Shown: positions 8,188 through 27,420, numbered from the stretch's first letter. The stretch is DNA of 64,000 bases from Patescibacteria group bacterium (GCA_038078735.1 JBBTTI010000001.1:20830-84829), one strand, 5' to 3'. Numbers and translations: made by a program. Notes: generated by a model not told the origin, from the letters alone.

Positions 8188-8214
8188 ATTGTTAGACGCT
8201 CAGCGTCTAACAAT
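8188..8214. repeat. REP-like palindrome ATTGTTAGACGCT-C-AGCGTCTAACAAT
   Basis: Perfect inverted repeat. The 21-nt core GTTAGACGCTCAGCGTCTAAC recurs identically at 8921-8941 on the other side of the RAYT gene. Confidence 0.85.
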
Positions 8215-8230: not shown

Positions 8231-8899
8231 TTATTCGAGAAAGAGATCTTTAATTTTTATTTTTGCGGTGCTTGTTTCTACAAATTTATAATAAGTATTA
8301 GTTTTAGAAAATTGATTAAGAATAATATTTGGCTTCAAGAGTTCTCCCCATCTGTTATTTTTAGCCACATCTTGATAGCTCGACCAAGGATAATTTATTT
8401 CTTTACTTTCCCATTGCTTTAATTCTCTTGGGTTGCGGTGAATATATGCGGAGAGATAAAGAAGTTGTTCGTCTGTTTCCACCGGAATAGCTCGAAAAGC
8501 TCCCTGGAAAAGATGTCCTTCTTTCTTATATTTTGCATTGAAGTATTTGGCGTAGCTAGTTTGTAGCCGCTGAAGGTAGTAAGAAATTCCATCACAATTA
8601 TTAGTTTTTTCTTGGACGAGGAGATGAAAATGATTAGGCATAATAGCGAAGGAGTTAAGTTCTATCTTTTTTGTCTCCACTATTTTCTGAATTATTTCTC
8701 GCGGTACATTAAACGTTGAGTATTTAATAAAATAAGAAGATTGGCGACCTATGTTGTAAAAGGGAATTGTTGCTTGGCAAAAAAGAGTAGAAAATAAAAA
8801 TCTCACATAGTCCTTGCTATCAATAAAGATAGATTCCCCATTATTGCTTCTGTTGCAAATATGATAGTACGAATTTTGGGCAAATTTAATTTTTCTCAT
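8231..8899 (-). mobile_element. Full-length IS200-like / REP-associated tyrosine transposase (RAYT-type Y1 HUH enzyme)
   Basis: PNHFHLLV (HUH), LLYLSAYIHRNP (catalytic Tyr helix). Bracketed by identical 21-nt palindromes. Confidence 0.8.
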
Positions 8900-8920
8900 A
8901 TATATCGTTTATTATACTAT

Positions 8921-8941
8921 GTTAGACGCTCAGCGTCTAAC
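8921..8941. repeat. REP-like palindrome GTTAGACGCTCAGCGTCTAAC
   Basis: Identical to 8191-8211. Confidence 0.85.
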
Positions 8942-8954
8942 ATTTAAAACCCCG

Positions 8955-9110: not shown

Positions 9111-9479
9111 ATGCATAGAAAAAAATGGGTATTCCTATTTCCGATTCTGTTGGTGTTAGCCCTAATGTTCGCAACAGGTTTTCCCGTAGTAGCTTCAGCA
9201 GCCCCGGCCAGTACTGTGTCGGTCCTGCATGAGGGAGCAGTAACCACAGCTTCAATTGAAAATGGCGTGGCGATAGCTCCCAGCGTAGCGTTAATGTCAG
9301 CGGCTTTTGCTGACACCGGCCAGCCCGCAATTACCATAGCGGTGGCCCCTTTGGTGACATCTACGGCAACTTTTACCGCAGCGTTAAATACCGGATCTGG
9401 AGGGCTCCCTCTGAAGTTTCCGATATTGGTGGCTTCTGGCGCGGCCCGCACCCACACTGACCAGCTAACTACCGGATAA
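9111..9479 (+). CDS. Small secreted Ala/Thr/Val-rich protein, unknown function
   Basis: RBS AAAAAGGAGGAAC 5 nt upstream. Signal peptide MHRKKWVFLFPILLVLALMFATGFPVVASA. GC-richer than its surroundings. Followed by a strong terminator. Confidence 0.6.
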   Translation: MHRKKWVFLFPILLVLALMFATGFPVVASAAPASTVSVLHEGAVTTASIENGVAIAPSVALMSAAFADTGQPAITIAVAPLVTSTATFTAALNTGSGGLPLKFPILVASGAARTHTDQLTTG

Positions 9480-9589: not shown

Positions 9590-10786
9590 ATGGTGGGACT
9601 GATTAGAAAATTTATTCCGAAGTTTTTGATTAGCTGGTATCATTTTGGTTTGGCCTTTTTGGCCGCGATTTTGTACGGGTTTCCCAGTCGGAAATTAAAA
9701 ATTATTGGAGTAACCGGAACTAACGGGAAAACAACAGTGGTTGAATTAACCGCCAGAGTTTTAGAGGAAGCAGGCTTCAAAGTCGCTTTTTTGTCATCAA
9801 TCAGATTTAAAATCAACGAAAAAGAATGGCCCAATAAATTAAAAATGACAATGCCGGGCCGTTTTTTTATCCAAAAATTTTTAAAGCAGGCGTCAACAGC
9901 CGGTTGCCAATATTTTATTTTAGAGGTTACTTCCGAAGGAATTTTGCAGCATCGCCATAGGTTTATAAATTTTAACACAGCTGTTTTCACTAATTTATCG
10001 CCAGAGCATATTGAACGCCACGGCGGTTTTGAAAACTACAAAAAAGCCAAAGGAAAATTATTTCAGGCAGTCAAAAATATTCATATTATTAATCTTGACG
10101 ATAAAAACACAGATTATTTTTGGCAATTTCCCGCAAAGAAAAAAATAACATACCAAATGTCAGGAAATCTGATATCCATTAACGGATTTAATGGATATCC
10201 GATTTCCGCTAATCCGCAATTAAAATTATTAGGCGATTTTAATCTTTATAATGCGGCGGCGGCAATCTCCGTCGGCTTATCGCAAGGAATTAATTTAGAA
10301 ATTTGTAAAAAAGCCGTGGAAAGTTTTGAGGGGATTCCGGGTAGAATGGAATTGGTAATTTCTCAACCATTTAAGGTTTTTGTGGATTATGCTTTTACTC
10401 CCAATGCTTTGGAAAAAGTTTATCAAGCCGTGAAACCGAAAATTTGTGTTTTAGGCGCGGCTGGCGGAGGCAGGGATAAGTGGAAAAGAAAAGTGTTGGG
10501 CGAGATAGCCGGAAAATATTGTGGAGAAGTTATCATTACTAATGAAGATCCTTATGACGAAAATCCAATGGAAATAATTGAGCAAGTGGCAGAGGGCGCG
10601 GGCCCAAAAGCCAAAAAGATTTTAGATAGAAGAGAAGCAATAAGAGAAGCATTAAAACTGGCTAATCCTGGTGATACGGTGATTATTACCGGCAAGGGAT
10701 GCGAACCGTGGATATGCCTAGCTGGTGGCAAAAAAATCCCCTGGGACGACAGGCAGGTGGTAAAAGAAGAATTTGCAAAATTTTGA
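9590..10786 (+). CDS. murE: Mur ligase family protein (MurE-like UDP-MurNAc-tripeptide synthetase)
   Basis: P-loop GVTGTNGKTT, FTNLSPEHIERHGG, DYAFTP, ITNEDPY motifs. Confidence 0.75.
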   Translation: MVGLIRKFIPKFLISWYHFGLAFLAAILYGFPSRKLKIIGVTGTNGKTTVVELTARVLEEAGFKVAFLSSIRFKINEKEWPNKLKMTMPGRFFIQKFLKQASTAGCQYFILEVTSEGILQHRHRFINFNTAVFTNLSPEHIERHGGFENYKKAKGKLFQAVKNIHIINLDDKNTDYFWQFPAKKKITYQMSGNLISINGFNGYPISANPQLKLLGDFNLYNAAAAISVGLSQGINLEICKKAVESFEGIPGRMELVISQPFKVFVDYAFTPNALEKVYQAVKPKICVLGAAGGGRDKWKRKVLGEIAGKYCGEVIITNEDPYDENPMEIIEQVAEGAGPKAKKILDRREAIREALKLANPGDTVIITGKGCEPWICLAGGKKIPWDDRQVVKEEFAKF

Positions 10787-10810
10787 ATTTAAGTATAAGA
10801 TGCGCATACT

Positions 10811-10963
10811 ATGCAAAACAAAAAACTGCCGAATTCAATAAGGAAATTTATCCGCAAAGAAAAGACGAGGATTCGCCGGGAAATTTCAGATGCGAAAGAG
10901 CGGGAAAATTTTATCTCAGAATTGTATAAAAGATTTTCTCGTCCCCGTAGTTCAACTGGATAG
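10811..10963 (+). CDS. Possible small basic protein (50 aa)
   Basis: ATG ORF MQNKKLPNSIRKFIRKEKTRIRREISDAKERENFISELYKRF... No clear RBS. The 3' end runs into the tRNA-like fragment. Confidence 0.25.
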   Translation: MQNKKLPNSIRKFIRKEKTRIRREISDAKERENFISELYKRFSRPRSSTG

Positions 10964-10972
10964 AATGGAGGC
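10941..10972 (+). other. tRNA 5'-half-like fragment (acceptor strand, D-arm, 5' anticodon-stem strand)
   Basis: GTCCCCG-TA-GTTC-AACTGGATA-GAAT-G-GAGGC. Closely resembles the 5' half of tRNA-Arg at 11290. The acceptor strand is perfectly complementary to CGGGGAC at 11981-11987. Confidence 0.55.
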
Positions 10973-11046
10973 CTCCCTCTGGGCCGTAAGGCCCAAGCTC
11001 CGCTCCGTTGGAGCGTACGCTCCAGAGGACGGGCCTGAGGCCGAAG
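10973..11046 (+). repeat. GC-rich structured module, copy 1 (CTCCCTCTGGGCCGTAAGGCCCAA + 33-nt insert + CGGGCCTGAGGCCGAAG)
   Basis: Both halves are identical to the 41-nt copy at 11914-11954. Contains a TGGGCC-GTAA-GGCCCA hairpin. Confidence 0.8.
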
Positions 11047-11051
11047 CCAGT

Positions 11052-11381
11052 ATGTTTTATGTATATTTATTAAAAAGCATAAAAGACGAGAGTTTTTATA
11101 TAGGACAAACGGACGATATTAAGAAGAGACTTCAGAGACATAACAGCGGATTTGTCCAGACGACTAAAAATAGAGTGCCATGGATAGTGTTGGGGTATGA
11201 ACAATATGATACGCGGGAAAAAGCAAGATGGCGCGAATATGAGCTGAAACATAATTATTTAAAAAAGAAAAAATTTATCGAAAGATTTTGTCCCCATAGC
11301 TTAATGGATAAAGTAGCGGCCTCCGAAGCCGCGGATCGAGGTTCGACTCCCCGTGGGGGCATAATTATTATATGCAATTAA
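11052..11381 (+). CDS. GIY-YIG nuclease superfamily protein (COG2827/UPF0213-like)
   Basis: MFYVYLLKS...FYIGQTDDIKKRLQRHNSG...REYELK. The track ORF starts earlier (10890), but that part is the tRNA-like/GC-rich module. The frame has no stop until 11381, so it reads through tRNA-Arg. Confidence 0.75.
   Translation: MFYVYLLKSIKDESFYIGQTDDIKKRLQRHNSGFVQTTKNRVPWIVLGYEQYDTREKARWREYELKHNYLKKKKFIERFCPHSLMDKVAASEAADRGSTPRGGIIIICN
11290..11361 (+). tRNA. tRNA-Arg (anticodon CCG), 72 nt, CCA not encoded
   Basis: Manual cloverleaf: GTCCCCA/TGGGGGC acceptor (one G-U), D-arm GCTT-AATGGATA-AAGT, anticodon arm GCGGC-CTCCGAA-GCCGC, T-arm CGAGG-TTCGACT-CCCCG (one A-C mismatch). Confidence 0.8.
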
Positions 11382-11884
11382 TTTTACCGTCTCTAAAATA
11401 TAAAGCATCGTATATTGAAGCATTGGAAGAATCGAAAAACGAAACAGAAGAAACGCAATTGAATAAACCTGCAGAAAATCAATCATTCGAAGAATTTGTG
11501 CAACAGCTAAACGATAATGCGAAAGGTATAAATTTGCCGGAAGGATATGTGCCGGCGACAATGCTTTGGCTTATAGATAAAAATAAGGTGATTGGCCGGG
11601 TGCAAATACGCCACGAATTAAACGACTACTTAATGAAATACGGAGGACACATCGGTTATTATATCCGTCCGTCAAAAAGGATGATGGGGTATGGCACAAA
11701 AATACTTGAATTGGCGTTGGTATATGCGGAAAAGCTGGGTTTGTCGAAAGTCCTGATAACGTGCGACGACGACAATTTTGGTTCCCGACGTATCATTGAA
11801 GCAAATGGTGGTATACTAGAAAATATAATTACAGTCGAGAAAGGTAAGCCTAAAAGGCGACGGTATTGGATAACGATTCTATAA
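11372..11884 (+). CDS. GNAT-family N-acetyltransferase
   Basis: GHIGYYIRPSKRMMGYGTKILELAL...ITCDDDNFGSRRIIEANGG acetyl-CoA-binding core. Confidence 0.7.
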   Translation: MQLILPSLKYKASYIEALEESKNETEETQLNKPAENQSFEEFVQQLNDNAKGINLPEGYVPATMLWLIDKNKVIGRVQIRHELNDYLMKYGGHIGYYIRPSKRMMGYGTKILELALVYAEKLGLSKVLITCDDDNFGSRRIIEANGGILENIITVEKGKPKRRRYWITIL

Positions 11885-11908
11885 GTGGATAGAAAATATA
11901 TCCTAATG

Positions 11909-11988
11909 TCTCCCTCCCTCTGGGCCGTAAGGCCCAACGGGCCTGAGGCCGAAGGAGAAGATTGGCTGTTCAAATCAGCCCGGGGACA
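11909..11988 (+). other. tRNA 3'-portion-like fragment: anticodon-type stem TCTCC/GGAGA enclosing the 40-nt GC-rich module, 5-nt variable loop, T-arm, acceptor 3' strand
   Basis: GGCTG-TTCAAAT-CAGCC T-arm, then CGGGGAC-A. No matching 5' acceptor or D-arm is present locally. Confidence 0.55.
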
Positions 11989-12268
11989 CAGAATGGCGGG
12001 CTTGTTGACAAAGTATTTTGATTTAGTAAACTCAATAGCGAGGGGGTGCGGGTTTTTTACCTTAAGGACAAACGGTTTCTGATGGAGGAGGTTTAAATGC
12101 ATGCACTGGTTAAAGTCCAAACCAGATTTAAGTAAAAGAACCGATTTTATTAGGGCCGGTCTCCCTCACTAAAAAGCTGTTAAGCCTTACTTGACAGTTT
12201 TTTTGTTGGTGGAATTTATGGTATATTGATTTTAGAAAGGTCGTTTTCAAAATTAAACTAAAAATTTT

Positions 12269-12526
12269 ATGGCAAACGAAGAAGGAAAATTAATCGGCAA
12301 AATCTCCCATTATTTTTCTAATATTGAAGTGGCGGTTATTGATTTAAACGGCGCATTAAAAATAGGAGATAATATCAGAATCATCGGTGGCGAAGTTGAC
12401 TTTGACCAAGCGGTTGATTCAATGGAAATTGACCGGAAGAAAGTTGAAAAAGCGGGAAAGGGCGATTCGGTGGGAATGAAAGTTAGTCAGAAAGTAAGAG
12501 AAGATTATAAAGTATATAAATTGTAA
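12269..12526 (+). CDS. Small beta-barrel protein resembling translation-factor domain II
   Basis: GKISHYFSNIEVAVIDL...IGDNIRIIG...GDSVGMKV pattern; assignment by eye only. Confidence 0.4.
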   Translation: MANEEGKLIGKISHYFSNIEVAVIDLNGALKIGDNIRIIGGEVDFDQAVDSMEIDRKKVEKAGKGDSVGMKVSQKVREDYKVYKL

Positions 12527-14279: not shown

Positions 14280-14462
14280 ATGGCTTTCAAAGATTTTGGT
14301 CCCAAAAGGGACTTTCCTCCCAGAGAGATGATCAAGGGCAACTGGAAGTGTTCAGAATGCGGAGCGGAGATTACCGAGCTCCCATTCGAGCCAGCCGCCG
14401 ACAGACCTATCTACTGCAGAGAATGCTGGAGGAACAAGAGATCAGACAGATTTCAAAGATAA
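14280..14462 (+). CDS. Small CxxC...CxxC zinc-ribbon protein
   Basis: CSECGAEITELPFEPAADRPIYCRECW. Confidence 0.6.
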   Translation: MAFKDFGPKRDFPPREMIKGNWKCSECGAEITELPFEPAADRPIYCRECWRNKRSDRFQR

Positions 14463-15416
14463 TCCTCTGATTGTTAAAACCGTCCCGTTCGGGGCGGTTT
14501 TAATTTCGAATTTATTATCAATAAATTTTTCAATTATTCGCATATTGATTTGGCAGCGGTCGGTAACTTCCGAAACCGTAACTCGTGATTTGCCGCTGGC
14601 CATGGCTAAATAGGGTAAAATTTGATCAGCCATATATTTATCTAAACAGGCGTTTGATTTTTGTTCTTTTAACAATTCTAGGGCCGCTTCTTTACCAATG
14701 TCTTCAGCTTTTTTCCCTAATTTACCTAACCCGTCGGCGCCGATTATTGTGTTTTGAAATTCGGCAATTAAGCAAATTTGGCTGCCCGGGCATTGAGCAG
14801 GATAATATTCTATTTTTTCTTCCATCGGTAAATTTAATCCTCCCAAAATTTCTCTTGCTCCGGTGATCTGTTTTTCTGCCGTTTTTTTCTCTTCGTCGGA
14901 TTCTGAAGCCCCGGAAATTACCAAGACTTTTTTTAAATCCCCTCTCTCGGTAAGGTTCAAATTTTTAAGCTTTGAAGGAAAGATATTCACTTCTACTTTG
15001 GCTCCTCCTTCCGGATAATAGCCTCTTTTTAAAATATTAATTTCAATTTTAACTCCCATTTTTTCTAAAATCTTTAAAAAAACATAGCGAAAATAATCAA
15101 TGGTTGGCGAAAAAAATGTGTCAGTCGTCCCGCCTCCAAAAATAATTTTTATTGGTACAGGGGAGAACAGGGCGGGTAAAATCAGGGCCTGTAAAACCAA
15201 AACAATACTCTCGGCCGCCGGAATATTTACGGAGAACCGTTCTCCGTAAATATCTCCGGGATAAAAACAATTACCTTCTATCCGGCCATTGCAAAGCCGG
15301 GCTAATGTTTGAATATTTAAAAGGTCTTGGGGCAAGACATTAAAAATCCGGCAAGGTTTTTTAGTTACTGCCGATAAAGCGCAGACTAATCCTGCTGGGC
15401 CATCAATTTCAATCAT
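14442..15416 (-). CDS. RNA 3'-terminal phosphate cyclase-like protein (RtcA/Rcl1 fold)
   Basis: MIEIDG..., GYYPEGGAKVEV, YMADQILPYLAMASG. The N-terminal GEGGGQ-type motif and the expected His in the C-terminal motif are not obvious. Confidence 0.6.
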   Translation of the reverse strand: MIEIDGPAGLVCALSAVTKKPCRIFNVLPQDLLNIQTLARLCNGRIEGNCFYPGDIYGERFSVNIPAAESIVLVLQALILPALFSPVPIKIIFGGGTTDTFFSPTIDYFRYVFLKILEKMGVKIEINILKRGYYPEGGAKVEVNIFPSKLKNLNLTERGDLKKVLVISGASESDEEKKTAEKQITGAREILGGLNLPMEEKIEYYPAQCPGSQICLIAEFQNTIIGADGLGKLGKKAEDIGKEAALELLKEQKSNACLDKYMADQILPYLAMASGKSRVTVSEVTDRCQINMRIIEKFIDNKFEIKTAPNGTVLTIRGLSLKSV

Positions 15417-27061: not shown

Positions 27062-27067
27062 CAAGTG

Positions 27068-27420
27068 TGGAGGTGGCGAGTGTGAGCTCGCATCCAAGAA
27101 TTATTCTAAAGATAGTTCTACAAATGTATCTCATTTGCTTTAAGCAAGAAGTTTAAAATGAGAAAAATCTTCCTACTTTGAGTTCTTTGATTGTTCAATA
27201 GTTTTTCTAAACCCGCTGAAAAGTTATCTATCTCGCTGATATAACACCCCCTATAGCACCTAGCGAGAATCCGAGAAGGGGATGCCGCCTTAAGCTAAAG
27301 CTAAAGCGGGTTGTTTGTTGAATAGATTAGCATTTATTCTAGCTTCTCAAAGTTTTATGAGATTTGAGAAAACTCAAATTGCCTATCTTTATCAAATTCC
27401 CGTCGAAGCAATTCACCCCC
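27068..27420 (-). ncRNA. ssrA: tmRNA (ssrA), ~353 nt, CCA not encoded
   Basis: 5' GGGGGTGAATTGCTTCGACGGGAATTTG. Tag frame GCT AAT CTA TTC AAC AAA CAA CCC GCT TTA GCT TTA GCT TAA (ANLFNKQPALALA*). 3' T-arm-like GCGAG..CTCGC, then CACCTCC-A pairing with the 5' end, including G3-U. Confidence 0.85.

Follow-up and report, generated by a model that had tools for sequence, protein, structure and literature searches.

Organisation of the locus

In a 64-kb stretch from a Patescibacteria group bacterium (JBBTTI010000001.1; hereafter the window, in which all coordinates are counted unless another locus is named), a small gene for a GIY-YIG nuclease lies directly ahead of an intact tRNA-Arg(CCG) gene, and this pair, followed by a GNAT acetyltransferase gene, is bracketed by two broken tRNA-Arg pieces that are interrupted by the same GC-rich sequence (Table 1). 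We refer to the broken pieces as the left and the right relic (LE and RE), to the GC-rich sequence as the module, and to the nuclease gene with its tRNA and their module-bearing surroundings as the cassette. Loci in other genomes carry our own numbers (L006 and so on). The locus is found 100% identical in contigs of four other assemblies and 99.1% identical in a fifth and is therefore not an assembly artefact; these contigs come from groundwater metagenomes. Among named organisms, those with the closest relatives of the MurE protein encoded next to the locus belong to Candidatus Nealsonbacteria / Patescibacteria, and the presence of a tmRNA at 27065-27420 identifies the host as a bacterium.

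The left relic (10941-10972) reads GTCCCCG-TA-GTTC-AACTGGATA-GAAT-G-GAGGC, which corresponds to the acceptor strand, the D-arm and the 5' strand of the anticodon stem, and Rfam makes no tRNA call on it at E<=10. After the module it continues with a degenerate anticodon-stem 3' strand and ends at 11050, 1 nt upstream of the ATG of the GIY-YIG gene. On the other side of the cassette, 11954-11988 reads GGAGA-AGATT-GGCTG-TTCAAAT-CAGCC-CGGGGAC-A, and its acceptor strand CGGGGAC pairs with GTCCCCG of the left relic (10941-10947) at 7/7 positions, for which the chance in one given pair is 4^-7, or about 6e-5. Further upstream, a D-loop piece AAGTGGATAGAA (11883-11894) is 92% identical to 10954-10965 (repeat D15) and is followed by an insert of about 12 nt, and this upstream part resembles the left relic of L007 (AATGGATAGAATATCTCC). 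The right element is a near full-length tRNA relic, with its 5' end overlapped by the stop codon of the GNAT gene.

Much of this anatomy had been proposed in an earlier note made from the sequence alone. Direct reading bears out the 5' half, the 3' part and the complementary acceptor strands it described, as well as the perfect 5-bp stem TCTCC/GGAGA around the 3' copy of the module, and the domain and tRNA searches (PF01541, PF13302, ARAGORN, Rfam) agree with its GIY-YIG gene, intact tRNA-Arg(CCG) and GNAT gene between the halves. Two of its statements have to be amended. The 3' portion is indeed the 3' part of a tRNA but begins further upstream, with the D-loop relic; and the module is shared as exact repeats by both copies, but the extra insert of the left copy, given as 33 nt, measures 32 nt (10997-11028) and turns out to be a module copy too, diverged and inverted. 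The note was right that simple splicing of the halves is not enough: neither collapsing the repeat nor joining CTCC|GAA in artificial constructs gave a credible tRNA, because GAGGC does not pair with GGAGA. The searches it had suggested for an intron returned no intron-bearing tRNA and no group I or other ribozyme. Over 10500-12500, Rfam matched only the intact tRNA at E<=10, and ARAGORN in intron mode (up to 3 kb, with lowered thresholds) gave spurious tRNA-Leu calls only.

Table 1. Positions of the cassette features and of other elements named in the text (window coordinates, or those of the locus given)
Feature	Position	Strand	Basis
Left relic (LE), tRNA-Arg positions 1-31	10941..10972	+	direct sequence reading
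Module, 74-nt form, in anticodon loop of left relic (CT|CC...GGCC|GAA)	10973..11046	+	exact repeats; model R1, 34.6 bits, E=1e-6
Nested, diverged, inverted module copy, 32 nt	10997..11028	-	model R1 minus-strand match 10989-11036, 31.4 bits, E=9e-6
Degenerate anticodon-stem 3' strand GCCAG	11046..11050	+	3/5 pairs with GAGGC
GIY-YIG nuclease ORF; conserved core 11052-11288 (79 aa)	11052..11381	+	PF01541
Intact tRNA-Arg(CCG), working copy of the cassette, without module	11289..11362	+	ARAGORN; Rfam RF00005, 57.6 bits against a gathering score of 29
GNAT acetyltransferase ORF, between working tRNA and right relic	11372..11884	+	PF13302 (E=1e-12), PF00583
Right relic (RE), upstream part: D-loop relic (11883-11894) and insert of about 12 nt	11883..11908	+	repeat D15
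Right-relic anticodon arm, TCTCC (11909-11913) / GGAGA (11954-11958), 5/5 pairs, enclosing the 41-nt module	11909..11958	+	
Module, 41-nt form, in right relic	11914..11954	+	model R1, 78.4 bits, E=1e-18
Right-relic 3' part: variable loop AGATT, T-arm GGCTG-TTCAAAT-CAGCC, acceptor CGGGGAC, discriminator A	11959..11988	+	direct reading
RAYT-like / IS200-type Y1 transposase ORF	8231..8899	-	NF047646, E=4e-11, below the family cut-off
Protein-gene cassettes	L044 2758-3400 (also L045-L047); L050 1850-2587		

The nuclease

The nuclease ORF carries a GIY-YIG domain (PF01541, E=2e-13) and is matched by no NCBIfam model. Among proteins of solved structure it is closest to 1ZG2 (E=5.4e-9, residues 2-74) and 1YWL (E=1.7e-5), both single-domain members of UPF0213, with SLX1 next, and its similarity to BH0048 and EF2693 extends over the whole protein of about 80-100 aa. 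The catalytic residues of GIY-YIG enzymes (Tyr, Arg, His/Asn, Glu) are all present; the motifs YVY, YIGQT, R, HN and E show no variation among 11 orthologues of 82-98 aa, all of them intact ORFs, which argues that the nuclease is under selection. The core of 79 aa lacks the linker and the C-terminal DNA-binding domain that complete the build of two-domain homing enzymes. It is not a classical enzyme of that kind, although it appears to behave like the engine of a homing cassette. PADLOC reported only weak partial matches of the GIY motif to a candidate system.

The nuclease gene is closely interwoven with its neighbours on both sides. From the ATG at 11052 the frame in the window meets no stop ahead of the tRNA and reads through the whole tRNA gene to 11381. 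In 7 of 10 tRNA-linked loci (including L006, L007, L017, L020, L033, L034 and L038) the ORF ends inside the tRNA gene, and in several loci its stop is the tRNA's own U8-A9-G10 (TAG); where the ORF ends within the tRNA, processing of a co-transcript by RNase P would remove the stop codon. Upstream, gene callers extend the ORF across the module (a 138-aa call, 10965-11381), and promoter prediction returned nothing at the module-bearing arm just ahead of the nuclease ATG.

The GC-rich module

The two copies of the module in the window are connected by two exact direct repeats, one of 25 nt (10972-10996 = 11913-11937) and one of 18 nt (11029-11046 = 11937-11954), and in both relics the module is inserted at the identical point of the anticodon loop (CTCC^GAA). 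A 20-mer of the module, CTCTGGGCCGTAAGGCCCAA, occurs at two places only in the 64 kb and at most once per shuffle in 100 shuffles (mean 0.00). Within the left copy an inverted repeat (I2) joins 10976-10996 to 11008-11028, and the same nested match is found in L007. A model built from eight module-bearing arms (R1) detected no module elsewhere in the window or in the approximately 180 kb of loci, and none in L041-L043 and L049. The module is likewise absent from every intact tRNA-Arg(CCG) called by ARAGORN and from the empty-site allele described below.

The conservation of the module is striking. It is identical at 41/41 positions in the window (right copy), L006, L009 and L011, and the 74-nt form of the window and that of L007 are 99% identical, with one base different; the linked nuclease genes, where measured, share 63-71% nucleotide identity and the intact tRNAs 62-75%. 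Module lengths across the loci are 24, 40, 41, 47 or 74 nt, composed of alternating GGGCC and GGCCC arms. The 47-nt form consists of three tandem GGGCC-NGA-GGCC units and the short form contains the perfect palindrome CCTCCGG-G-CCGGAGG. The 3' end of the short form, GGAGGCC, is the reverse complement of GGCCTCC, a GGC-type anticodon stem end plus CTCC, which on inspection suggests that the module may have originated by fold-back at a break in the anticodon loop.

The anticodon stems around the module covary freely from locus to locus, in the manner of genuine tRNA stems (TCTCC/GGAGA, CATCC/GGATG, TTCCC/GGGAA, TAGCC/GGCTG and others), with 4/5 pairs changed on both sides, and enclose an invariant module, which implies that many tRNA-Arg(CCG) alleles acquired one insert at one position. 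Within the module's own stems there is no covariation, as these are invariant across loci, which neither supports nor opposes an RNA fold. The module is found in either orientation: in L044-L047 the palindrome scores 45 bits on the minus strand versus 21 on the plus strand (model R1), and the left copy of L048, which lies in the D-loop, scores 31.8 bits inverted versus 23.8. Its position in the target is constant, 6-12 nt ahead of the cassette junction. The primary sequence is invariant, is used in both orientations, can be nested or grow in tandem, and is confined to the cassette; these properties favour a role at the DNA level over one as an mRNA leader or intron, and there the module may act as a plug at the presumed cut site, or as an operator.

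An empty site in a related genome

A relative with a MurE of 75% identity (L043) has kept the same neighbours, i.e. the genes for DNA polymerase III delta, S20, MurE, an ORF of about 50 aa, an ORF of about 85 aa, MgtC and a PHP-type protein. Where the window has its right relic, L043 possesses one plain tRNA-Arg(CCG), and no GIY-YIG gene, module or GNAT gene is present between the flanks. The shared flanks are window 10610-10939, corresponding to L043 5003-5337, and window 12022-12183, corresponding to L043 6609-6771 at 89% identity. Flank homology thus breaks at 10939 and resumes at 12022, and the interval not shared with L043 contains the whole element. The distance to the shared downstream block is 33 nt from the end of the right relic and 90 nt from the end of the L043 tRNA. 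L043 also carries an unrelated NIF3 gene between the shared flanks, which the window does not have there.

Recurrence in other Patescibacteria

The contigs that encode nuclease homologues (53-72% identity, 81-106 aa) were located, and GTDB genomes and JGI metagenomes were scanned for the exact pattern of the module; 18 of 23 and 5 of 9 matches from these scans were chance occurrences in GC-rich genomes and were discarded on their flanks. The true loci from the scans are L009 (Doudnabacteria), L011 and L017 (both Saccharibacteria), L020, L033, L034, L037 and L038. The order [tRNA 1-43 with module]-GIY-YIG-intact tRNA-Arg(CCG)-[module-bearing tRNA 27-76 or longer] recurs, completely or in part, in 12 loci other than that of the window, which belong to several lineages of Patescibacteria; with the window there are thus 13 tRNA-linked loci, a count that comes from a map of twelve loci and a reading of the sequence of L048 as the thirteenth.

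Both ways of searching converge on the same arrangement. A truncated 5' duplicate, a module-like palindrome, a GIY-YIG gene and an intact downstream gene are present at seven out of seven loci fetched by nuclease homology alone (L006, L007, L008, L044 with four near-identical contigs, L048 and L050). In L006, L007 and L008 a tRNA 5' half with the module in its anticodon loop is followed by the nuclease ATG within 20 nt, and then by an intact tRNA-Arg(CCG). Vice versa, at the loci found by the module pattern alone the nuclease gene is adjacent in 7/8 and an intact tRNA-Arg(CCG) is present in 8/8; L037 has lost the nuclease gene and kept the left relic and the working tRNA. Among nine left relics the tRNA homology ends at about position 41-43 and the nuclease ATG follows 1-20 nt later.

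Loci differ in how much of the displaced gene they retain. Either one or both relics are present, and six loci possess only the left copy of the module. In L033 a full-length module-bearing tRNA-Arg, otherwise identical to the working copy, lies downstream of two cargo ORFs. The GNAT gene of the window is missing from the empty site L043 and from the other mapped cassettes, and we read it as passenger cargo. The 3' relic of L006 (4335-4378) has a T-arm whose T-loop (TTC...GATT) holds a different, 16-nt GC hairpin (CCTGCCGGCAGGCAGG), and then CGAGCGC-A, which pairs with GCGCTCG of the left relic.

No match for the module or the nuclease was found in IMG/VR, and there is no sign of a phage origin. 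A literature search on GIY-YIG with tRNA-Arg, on UPF0213/YhbQ/COG2827 and on related topics returned no description of such a cassette, which appears to be an undescribed, recurrent mobile design in the Candidate Phyla Radiation.

A cassette at a protein gene

At L044-L047 and L050, which represent two additional lineages, a nuclease of the same family is placed ahead of a large surface-protein gene, and a truncated 5' duplicate of that gene lies upstream. The duplicate of L044 has diverged by about 50% except for approximately 30 nt beside the junction; it ends in an inverted module-like palindrome, and a further 6-7 nt of the target (GTGGGAT) separate this from the nuclease ATG. The palindrome sits at TGG^TGGGA, in a motif coding for WWD, and in L050 it corresponds to the 15-nt core of the short module in reverse complement. 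Its presence, inverted, at a protein-gene target indicates that the palindrome accompanies the nuclease and not the tRNA, and that it works in either orientation.

Allele turnover and mosaic relics

Several relics are related to alleles that are intact elsewhere, so that an allele working in one genome turns up in another as a relic with the module. In L008 the right relic has a 3' half that practically coincides with the working tRNA of L009 (score 35 in a local alignment of the 37 nt of this half) and with that of L034. From the anticodon stem through the T-arm, the right relics of L011 and L048 match a working allele, from which they differ in the acceptor strand. L034 possesses nested relics, of which the outermost acceptor strands pair (GCATCCG / CGGATGC), and L007 and L011 share an upstream gene but are in different states. 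Together with the empty site, the mosaic relics and the turnover of alleles display the two traits expected of homing, i.e. presence/absence polymorphism and co-conversion.

Probable serial replacement of a tRNA gene

We consider it probable, at roughly 70%, that the region 10941-11988 represents a resident tRNA-Arg(CCG) gene that was overwritten by a cassette of a GIY-YIG gene and a working tRNA in a serial, homing-type replacement, and that the relics are non-functional. Most likely, the cassette joins a UPF0213-like single-domain GIY-YIG gene closely to a working tRNA-Arg(CCG) of its own, and in the window it has a GNAT gene as passenger. This reading draws on the anatomy of the locus, the empty site, the recurrence of the design, nested and mosaic relics, re-targeting to a protein gene, and the conservation of the module in either orientation. 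Among the explanations offered in the earlier note, that of pseudogenes has found support, as both flanking pieces are most likely relics of a displaced tRNA-Arg(CCG), and the uninterrupted locus that it had sought in related genomes exists as the plain gene of L043. Its suggestion of an intron-containing tRNA disrupted by a GIY-YIG insertion survives in one half: the empty site and the recurrence speak for a displacement associated with the GIY-YIG gene, whereas Rfam and ARAGORN speak against the module as an intron.

The displacement may be pictured as follows. The nuclease would cut or nick a naive target in or near the anticodon loop, where the module sits, and the break would be repaired from a cassette-bearing donor. 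The tRNA halves now seen in the relics would serve as homology arms, and as the only ones, because genomes are dissimilar in sequence outside their tRNA genes. Relics, module, nuclease gene and replacement tRNA would be copied together; the inner parts of the tRNA would be co-converted and the distal acceptor strands would stay resident, which would explain why the acceptor strands of the window pair 7/7 though its anticodon-stem strands do not. On the one hand, the module could be a plug that destroys the target site in each retained copy of the anticodon arm and so prevents re-cutting. Alternatively, it could be a non-cleavable operator just upstream of the nuclease gene, as in the autorepression of I-TevI. 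CTCCG fits CNNNG, which we take to be an I-TevI-like site, and TCCGA fits TCNGA, presumably Hpy188I-like, but the information content of these patterns is too low for them to serve as evidence. The host uses CGG normally (88 codons in 42 long ORFs of the window, 14% of the Arg codons), and the cassette therefore has to bring a working tRNA. The same count led us to drop the idea that a rarity of CGG makes tRNA-Arg(CCG) a cheap target.

Several observations weigh against serial replacement. The cleavage activity and the target site of the nuclease are putative, as is the role assigned to the module, and a catalytic domain of about 80 aa without a DNA-binding domain is unlike the characterised GIY-YIG homing enzymes. 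Only one empty site is syntenic; L041, L042 and L049, likewise MurE relatives, are not syntenic downstream. The relics of the window are no more similar to the tRNA of L043 (25/31 positions for the left and 23/31 for the right relic) than to the working tRNA of the window (24/31 and 23/28), so that pieces of resident and of donor origin are indistinguishable. In addition, the anticodon arm of the working tRNA is uninterrupted and in 4 of the 13 tRNA-linked loci (L011, L017, L020 and L033) identical to the relic arm, which leaves the immunity of the working copy unexplained and amounts to a self-targeting paradox. Finally, both relics of the window keep the whole anticodon arm, with positions 27-43 duplicated, which is not predicted by simple cut-and-copy.

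We advance a wider proposal only tentatively: single-domain UPF0213-type nucleases might drive a two-part selfish system in Patescibacteria, with a cut at the anticodon loop of tRNA-Arg(CCG) or at a WWD motif of a surface-protein gene, a trans-acting palindromic plug placed at the cut site of each retained target copy, a carried 5' part or whole copy of the target as both homology arm and replacement, and serial overwriting of an essential tRNA gene from lineage to lineage. If cleavage is confirmed, at least one branch of UPF0213, a large family without an assigned role, would receive a biological role. It would then also be clear that an essential tRNA gene can be overwritten horizontally and repeatedly, and the locus would provide a very small, naturally re-targetable nuclease cassette with a cognate DNA element of 41 nt. 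For annotation, tRNA-like fragments and N-terminally over-extended GIY-YIG ORFs are to be expected at such loci.

Alternative explanations

Other explanations of the locus do not involve homing, and we regard all of them as improbable to differing degrees. The one that survives best, although unlikely, treats the GIY-YIG (UPF0213) gene and tRNA-Arg(CCG) as an old housekeeping pair, and the relics as products of local tandem duplication, slippage and decay at a tRNA locus prone to recombination. UPF0213 proteins are indeed widespread chromosomal proteins of unknown function, and the left relics of L017, L020 and L033 equal the corresponding 5' half of the working tRNA, which is what simple tandem duplication would produce. 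A housekeeping pair should nevertheless not be missing from the syntenic relative L043, nor should cassettes occur in unrelated genomic contexts. Duplication and decay also fit poorly with relics that carry alleles working in other genomes, with mosaics, with an identical 41-nt insert in many tRNA backgrounds, and with the same duplication-plus-palindrome design at a protein gene whose displaced 5' copy has diverged except near the junction.

Still less probable is site-specific integration of the islet of GIY-YIG gene, tRNA and GNAT gene into a tRNA, with the module arms as attL and attR, an att-like duplication that the earlier note had also considered. Anticodon arms of tRNAs are classic crossover sites of integrases, and direct repeats bound the element in the window, L008 and L033. 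However, no integrase or recombinase is encoded in the element or among the called genes within a few kb in the five loci with gene tables, and neither junction regenerates an intact tRNA, as both copies are interrupted. The module is missing from the naive site, which means that the repeat did not arise by duplication of an attB; six loci have a left copy only; and the anticodon stems that flank the two module copies differ within one locus.

It is conceivable, but very improbable, that the module is an independent REP/MITE-like palindrome in decaying tRNA duplicates, mobilised for example by the RAYT-like Y1 transposase encoded 2 kb upstream, with the GIY-YIG gene as a bystander. A GC-rich, quasi-palindromic sequence that is nested, tandemly expanded and found in both orientations would suit such an origin. 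The RAYT-like ORF is flanked by perfect palindromes of its own, ATTGTTAGACGCT/AGCGTCTAACAAT (8188-8214) and ATGTTAGACGCT/AGCGTCTAACAT (8919-8943), which are unrelated to the module, and it was dropped as a mobiliser for this reason. Moreover, the 64 kb contain no module copy elsewhere, no Y1 transposase is found among the called genes at L006, L007, L008 and L048, and the module always occupies the same position in its target, the constant short distance before the cassette junction noted above.

The weakest reading takes the module for a tRNA intron, or the relics for a split tRNA whose transcripts are paired, processed and ligated (e.g. by an RtcB-type ligase) into a second tRNA-Arg(CCG). 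The acceptor strands that pair 7/7, a module placed exactly in the anticodon loop whose removal leaves CTCCGAA, the full-length module-bearing tRNA-Arg of L033, an RtcA gene 2.5 kb away and RtcB and an archease fusion in relatives make it tempting; but it is hardly tenable in a bacterial host, with no intron or ribozyme match and failing splice constructs, with module copies that are direct repeats and not a complementary leader and trailer, with relic acceptor strands that do not match in L008 and several loci that have one relic only, with a working tRNA-Arg(CCG) always alongside and a naive allele without the module, and with the module inverted and beside a protein-gene target as well. The locus of the window is not a split or intron-bearing functional tRNA, the relics are not joined, and a tempting case of such a bacterial tRNA is thereby removed.

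Neighbouring features

RtcA (RNA 3'-phosphate cyclase) is encoded at 14442-15416 on the minus strand, about 2.5 kb downstream of the cassette. In relatives, RtcB is encoded beside a LAGLIDADG ORF (L042 6305-7741), and a MurE-archease fusion occurs (P0052). No link between the RtcA/RtcB genes and the tRNA relics was found. A hammerhead-like reading of CUGAGG...GAA was rejected by inspection and on the Rfam result.

The non-coding block 12022-12183 downstream of the right relic is 89% identical to L043, compared with about 77% for neighbouring coding DNA. A promoter-like site, TTGACA-16-TAAACT, is located at 12005-12032, and the block itself folds into a long hairpin and a terminator-like stem with a U-run (z = -3.6), without an Rfam match at E<=10. 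The segment 12005-12205 is a candidate for an unannotated small RNA or for the leader of the 85-aa gene at 12269-12526. Upstream of the cassette, a 122-aa ORF (9111-9479) stands out as a stretch of approximately 55% G+C against approximately 37% in its surroundings; its product is rich in Ala, Thr and Val, has a signal-peptide-like start and matches no Pfam family.

Comparison with known systems

Four known kinds of system resemble the locus at first sight and differ from it in what defines them. Split tRNAs of the Nanoarchaeum type have a complementary GC-rich leader and trailer that pair in trans and an archaeal host with a splicing endonuclease, whereas the locus has direct repeats and a tmRNA, and relics at other loci are mismatched or unpaired. 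REP and REPIN elements with a RAYT have matching, dispersed palindromes; here the palindromes flanking the RAYT-like gene are unrelated and the module occurs at only two places in 64 kb. Integrative elements that target tRNA genes come with a linked integrase and a repeat that regenerates the tRNA, both of which the cassette lacks. In a tRNA with a self-splicing intron a ribozyme core separates two exons that fold into a tRNA, and the relics with their module provide neither the core nor such exons.

Group I introns are known from the anticodon loops of tRNAs of Patescibacteria (PMC13011429), i.e. from the same phylum and the same site. GIY-YIG and CCG are both missing from the main text of that paper, in which Arg is named only in a table, as Arg(GCG). 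In contrast to these introns, the module has no group I core, is only 24-74 nt long, and interrupts copies that are fragments.

The GC clusters, double-hairpin elements and short inverted repeats of mitochondria are closer to the module in appearance. They too are short GC-rich palindromes in an AT-rich genome that occur in either orientation, nested or in tandem, and for mitochondrial GC clusters and hairpin repeats both mobility and a link to recombination are suspected (PMC3787672). In the DNA covered here the module shows no such dispersal: its two copies in 64 kb both belong to the cassette, and it is tied to one nuclease family and one target position. The operator of I-TevI resembles the homing site without a cleavable sequence at the right distance and serves autorepression (PMC2988022). 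A module-bearing arm, which would be an uncuttable target-like sequence and ends 1-20 nt before the nuclease ATG, could be its analogue, except that copies of the module are also found downstream of the cassette.

Regarding the displaced target, the cassette is reminiscent of the 'hybrid gene' ORFs of fungal mitochondria (Allomyces atp6; Glomus), in which an endonuclease gene carries a replacement for a portion of its target and the resident sequence of that portion persists as a pseudogene. The Allomyces atp6 case of an endonuclease ORF making a hybrid gene was reportedly described by Paquin et al. in 1994. The replacement is divergent except near the junction, as it is in L044. Mitochondrial endonuclease ORFs are known to create hybrid genes and to travel among GC-rich hairpin repeats (PMC3787672). 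The cassette differs in that it supplies the 5' part or the whole gene instead of the 3' part, in its main target, a tRNA, in its bacterial host and in the palindrome at the junction.

With regard to the nuclease, the free-standing GIY-YIG enzymes of T4-like phages (Seg) and their 'intronless homing' offer the nearest parallel: the gene lies beside its target and not in an intron, its presence or absence is polymorphic, and neighbouring markers are co-converted. T4 segB is located between the genes for tRNA-Arg and tRNA-Ile and drives the preferential inheritance of the tRNA region (PMC2988022). Seg enzymes and I-TevI have two domains, while the enzyme of the cassette is a single UPF0213 domain of about 80 aa; its host is a chromosome of Patescibacteria and not a phage, its target gene is displaced and replaced, and a palindrome marks each displaced copy. 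In our view the cassette is probably of the homing type with target replacement, and it combines an unusual minimal nuclease with a strikingly conserved palindromic companion.

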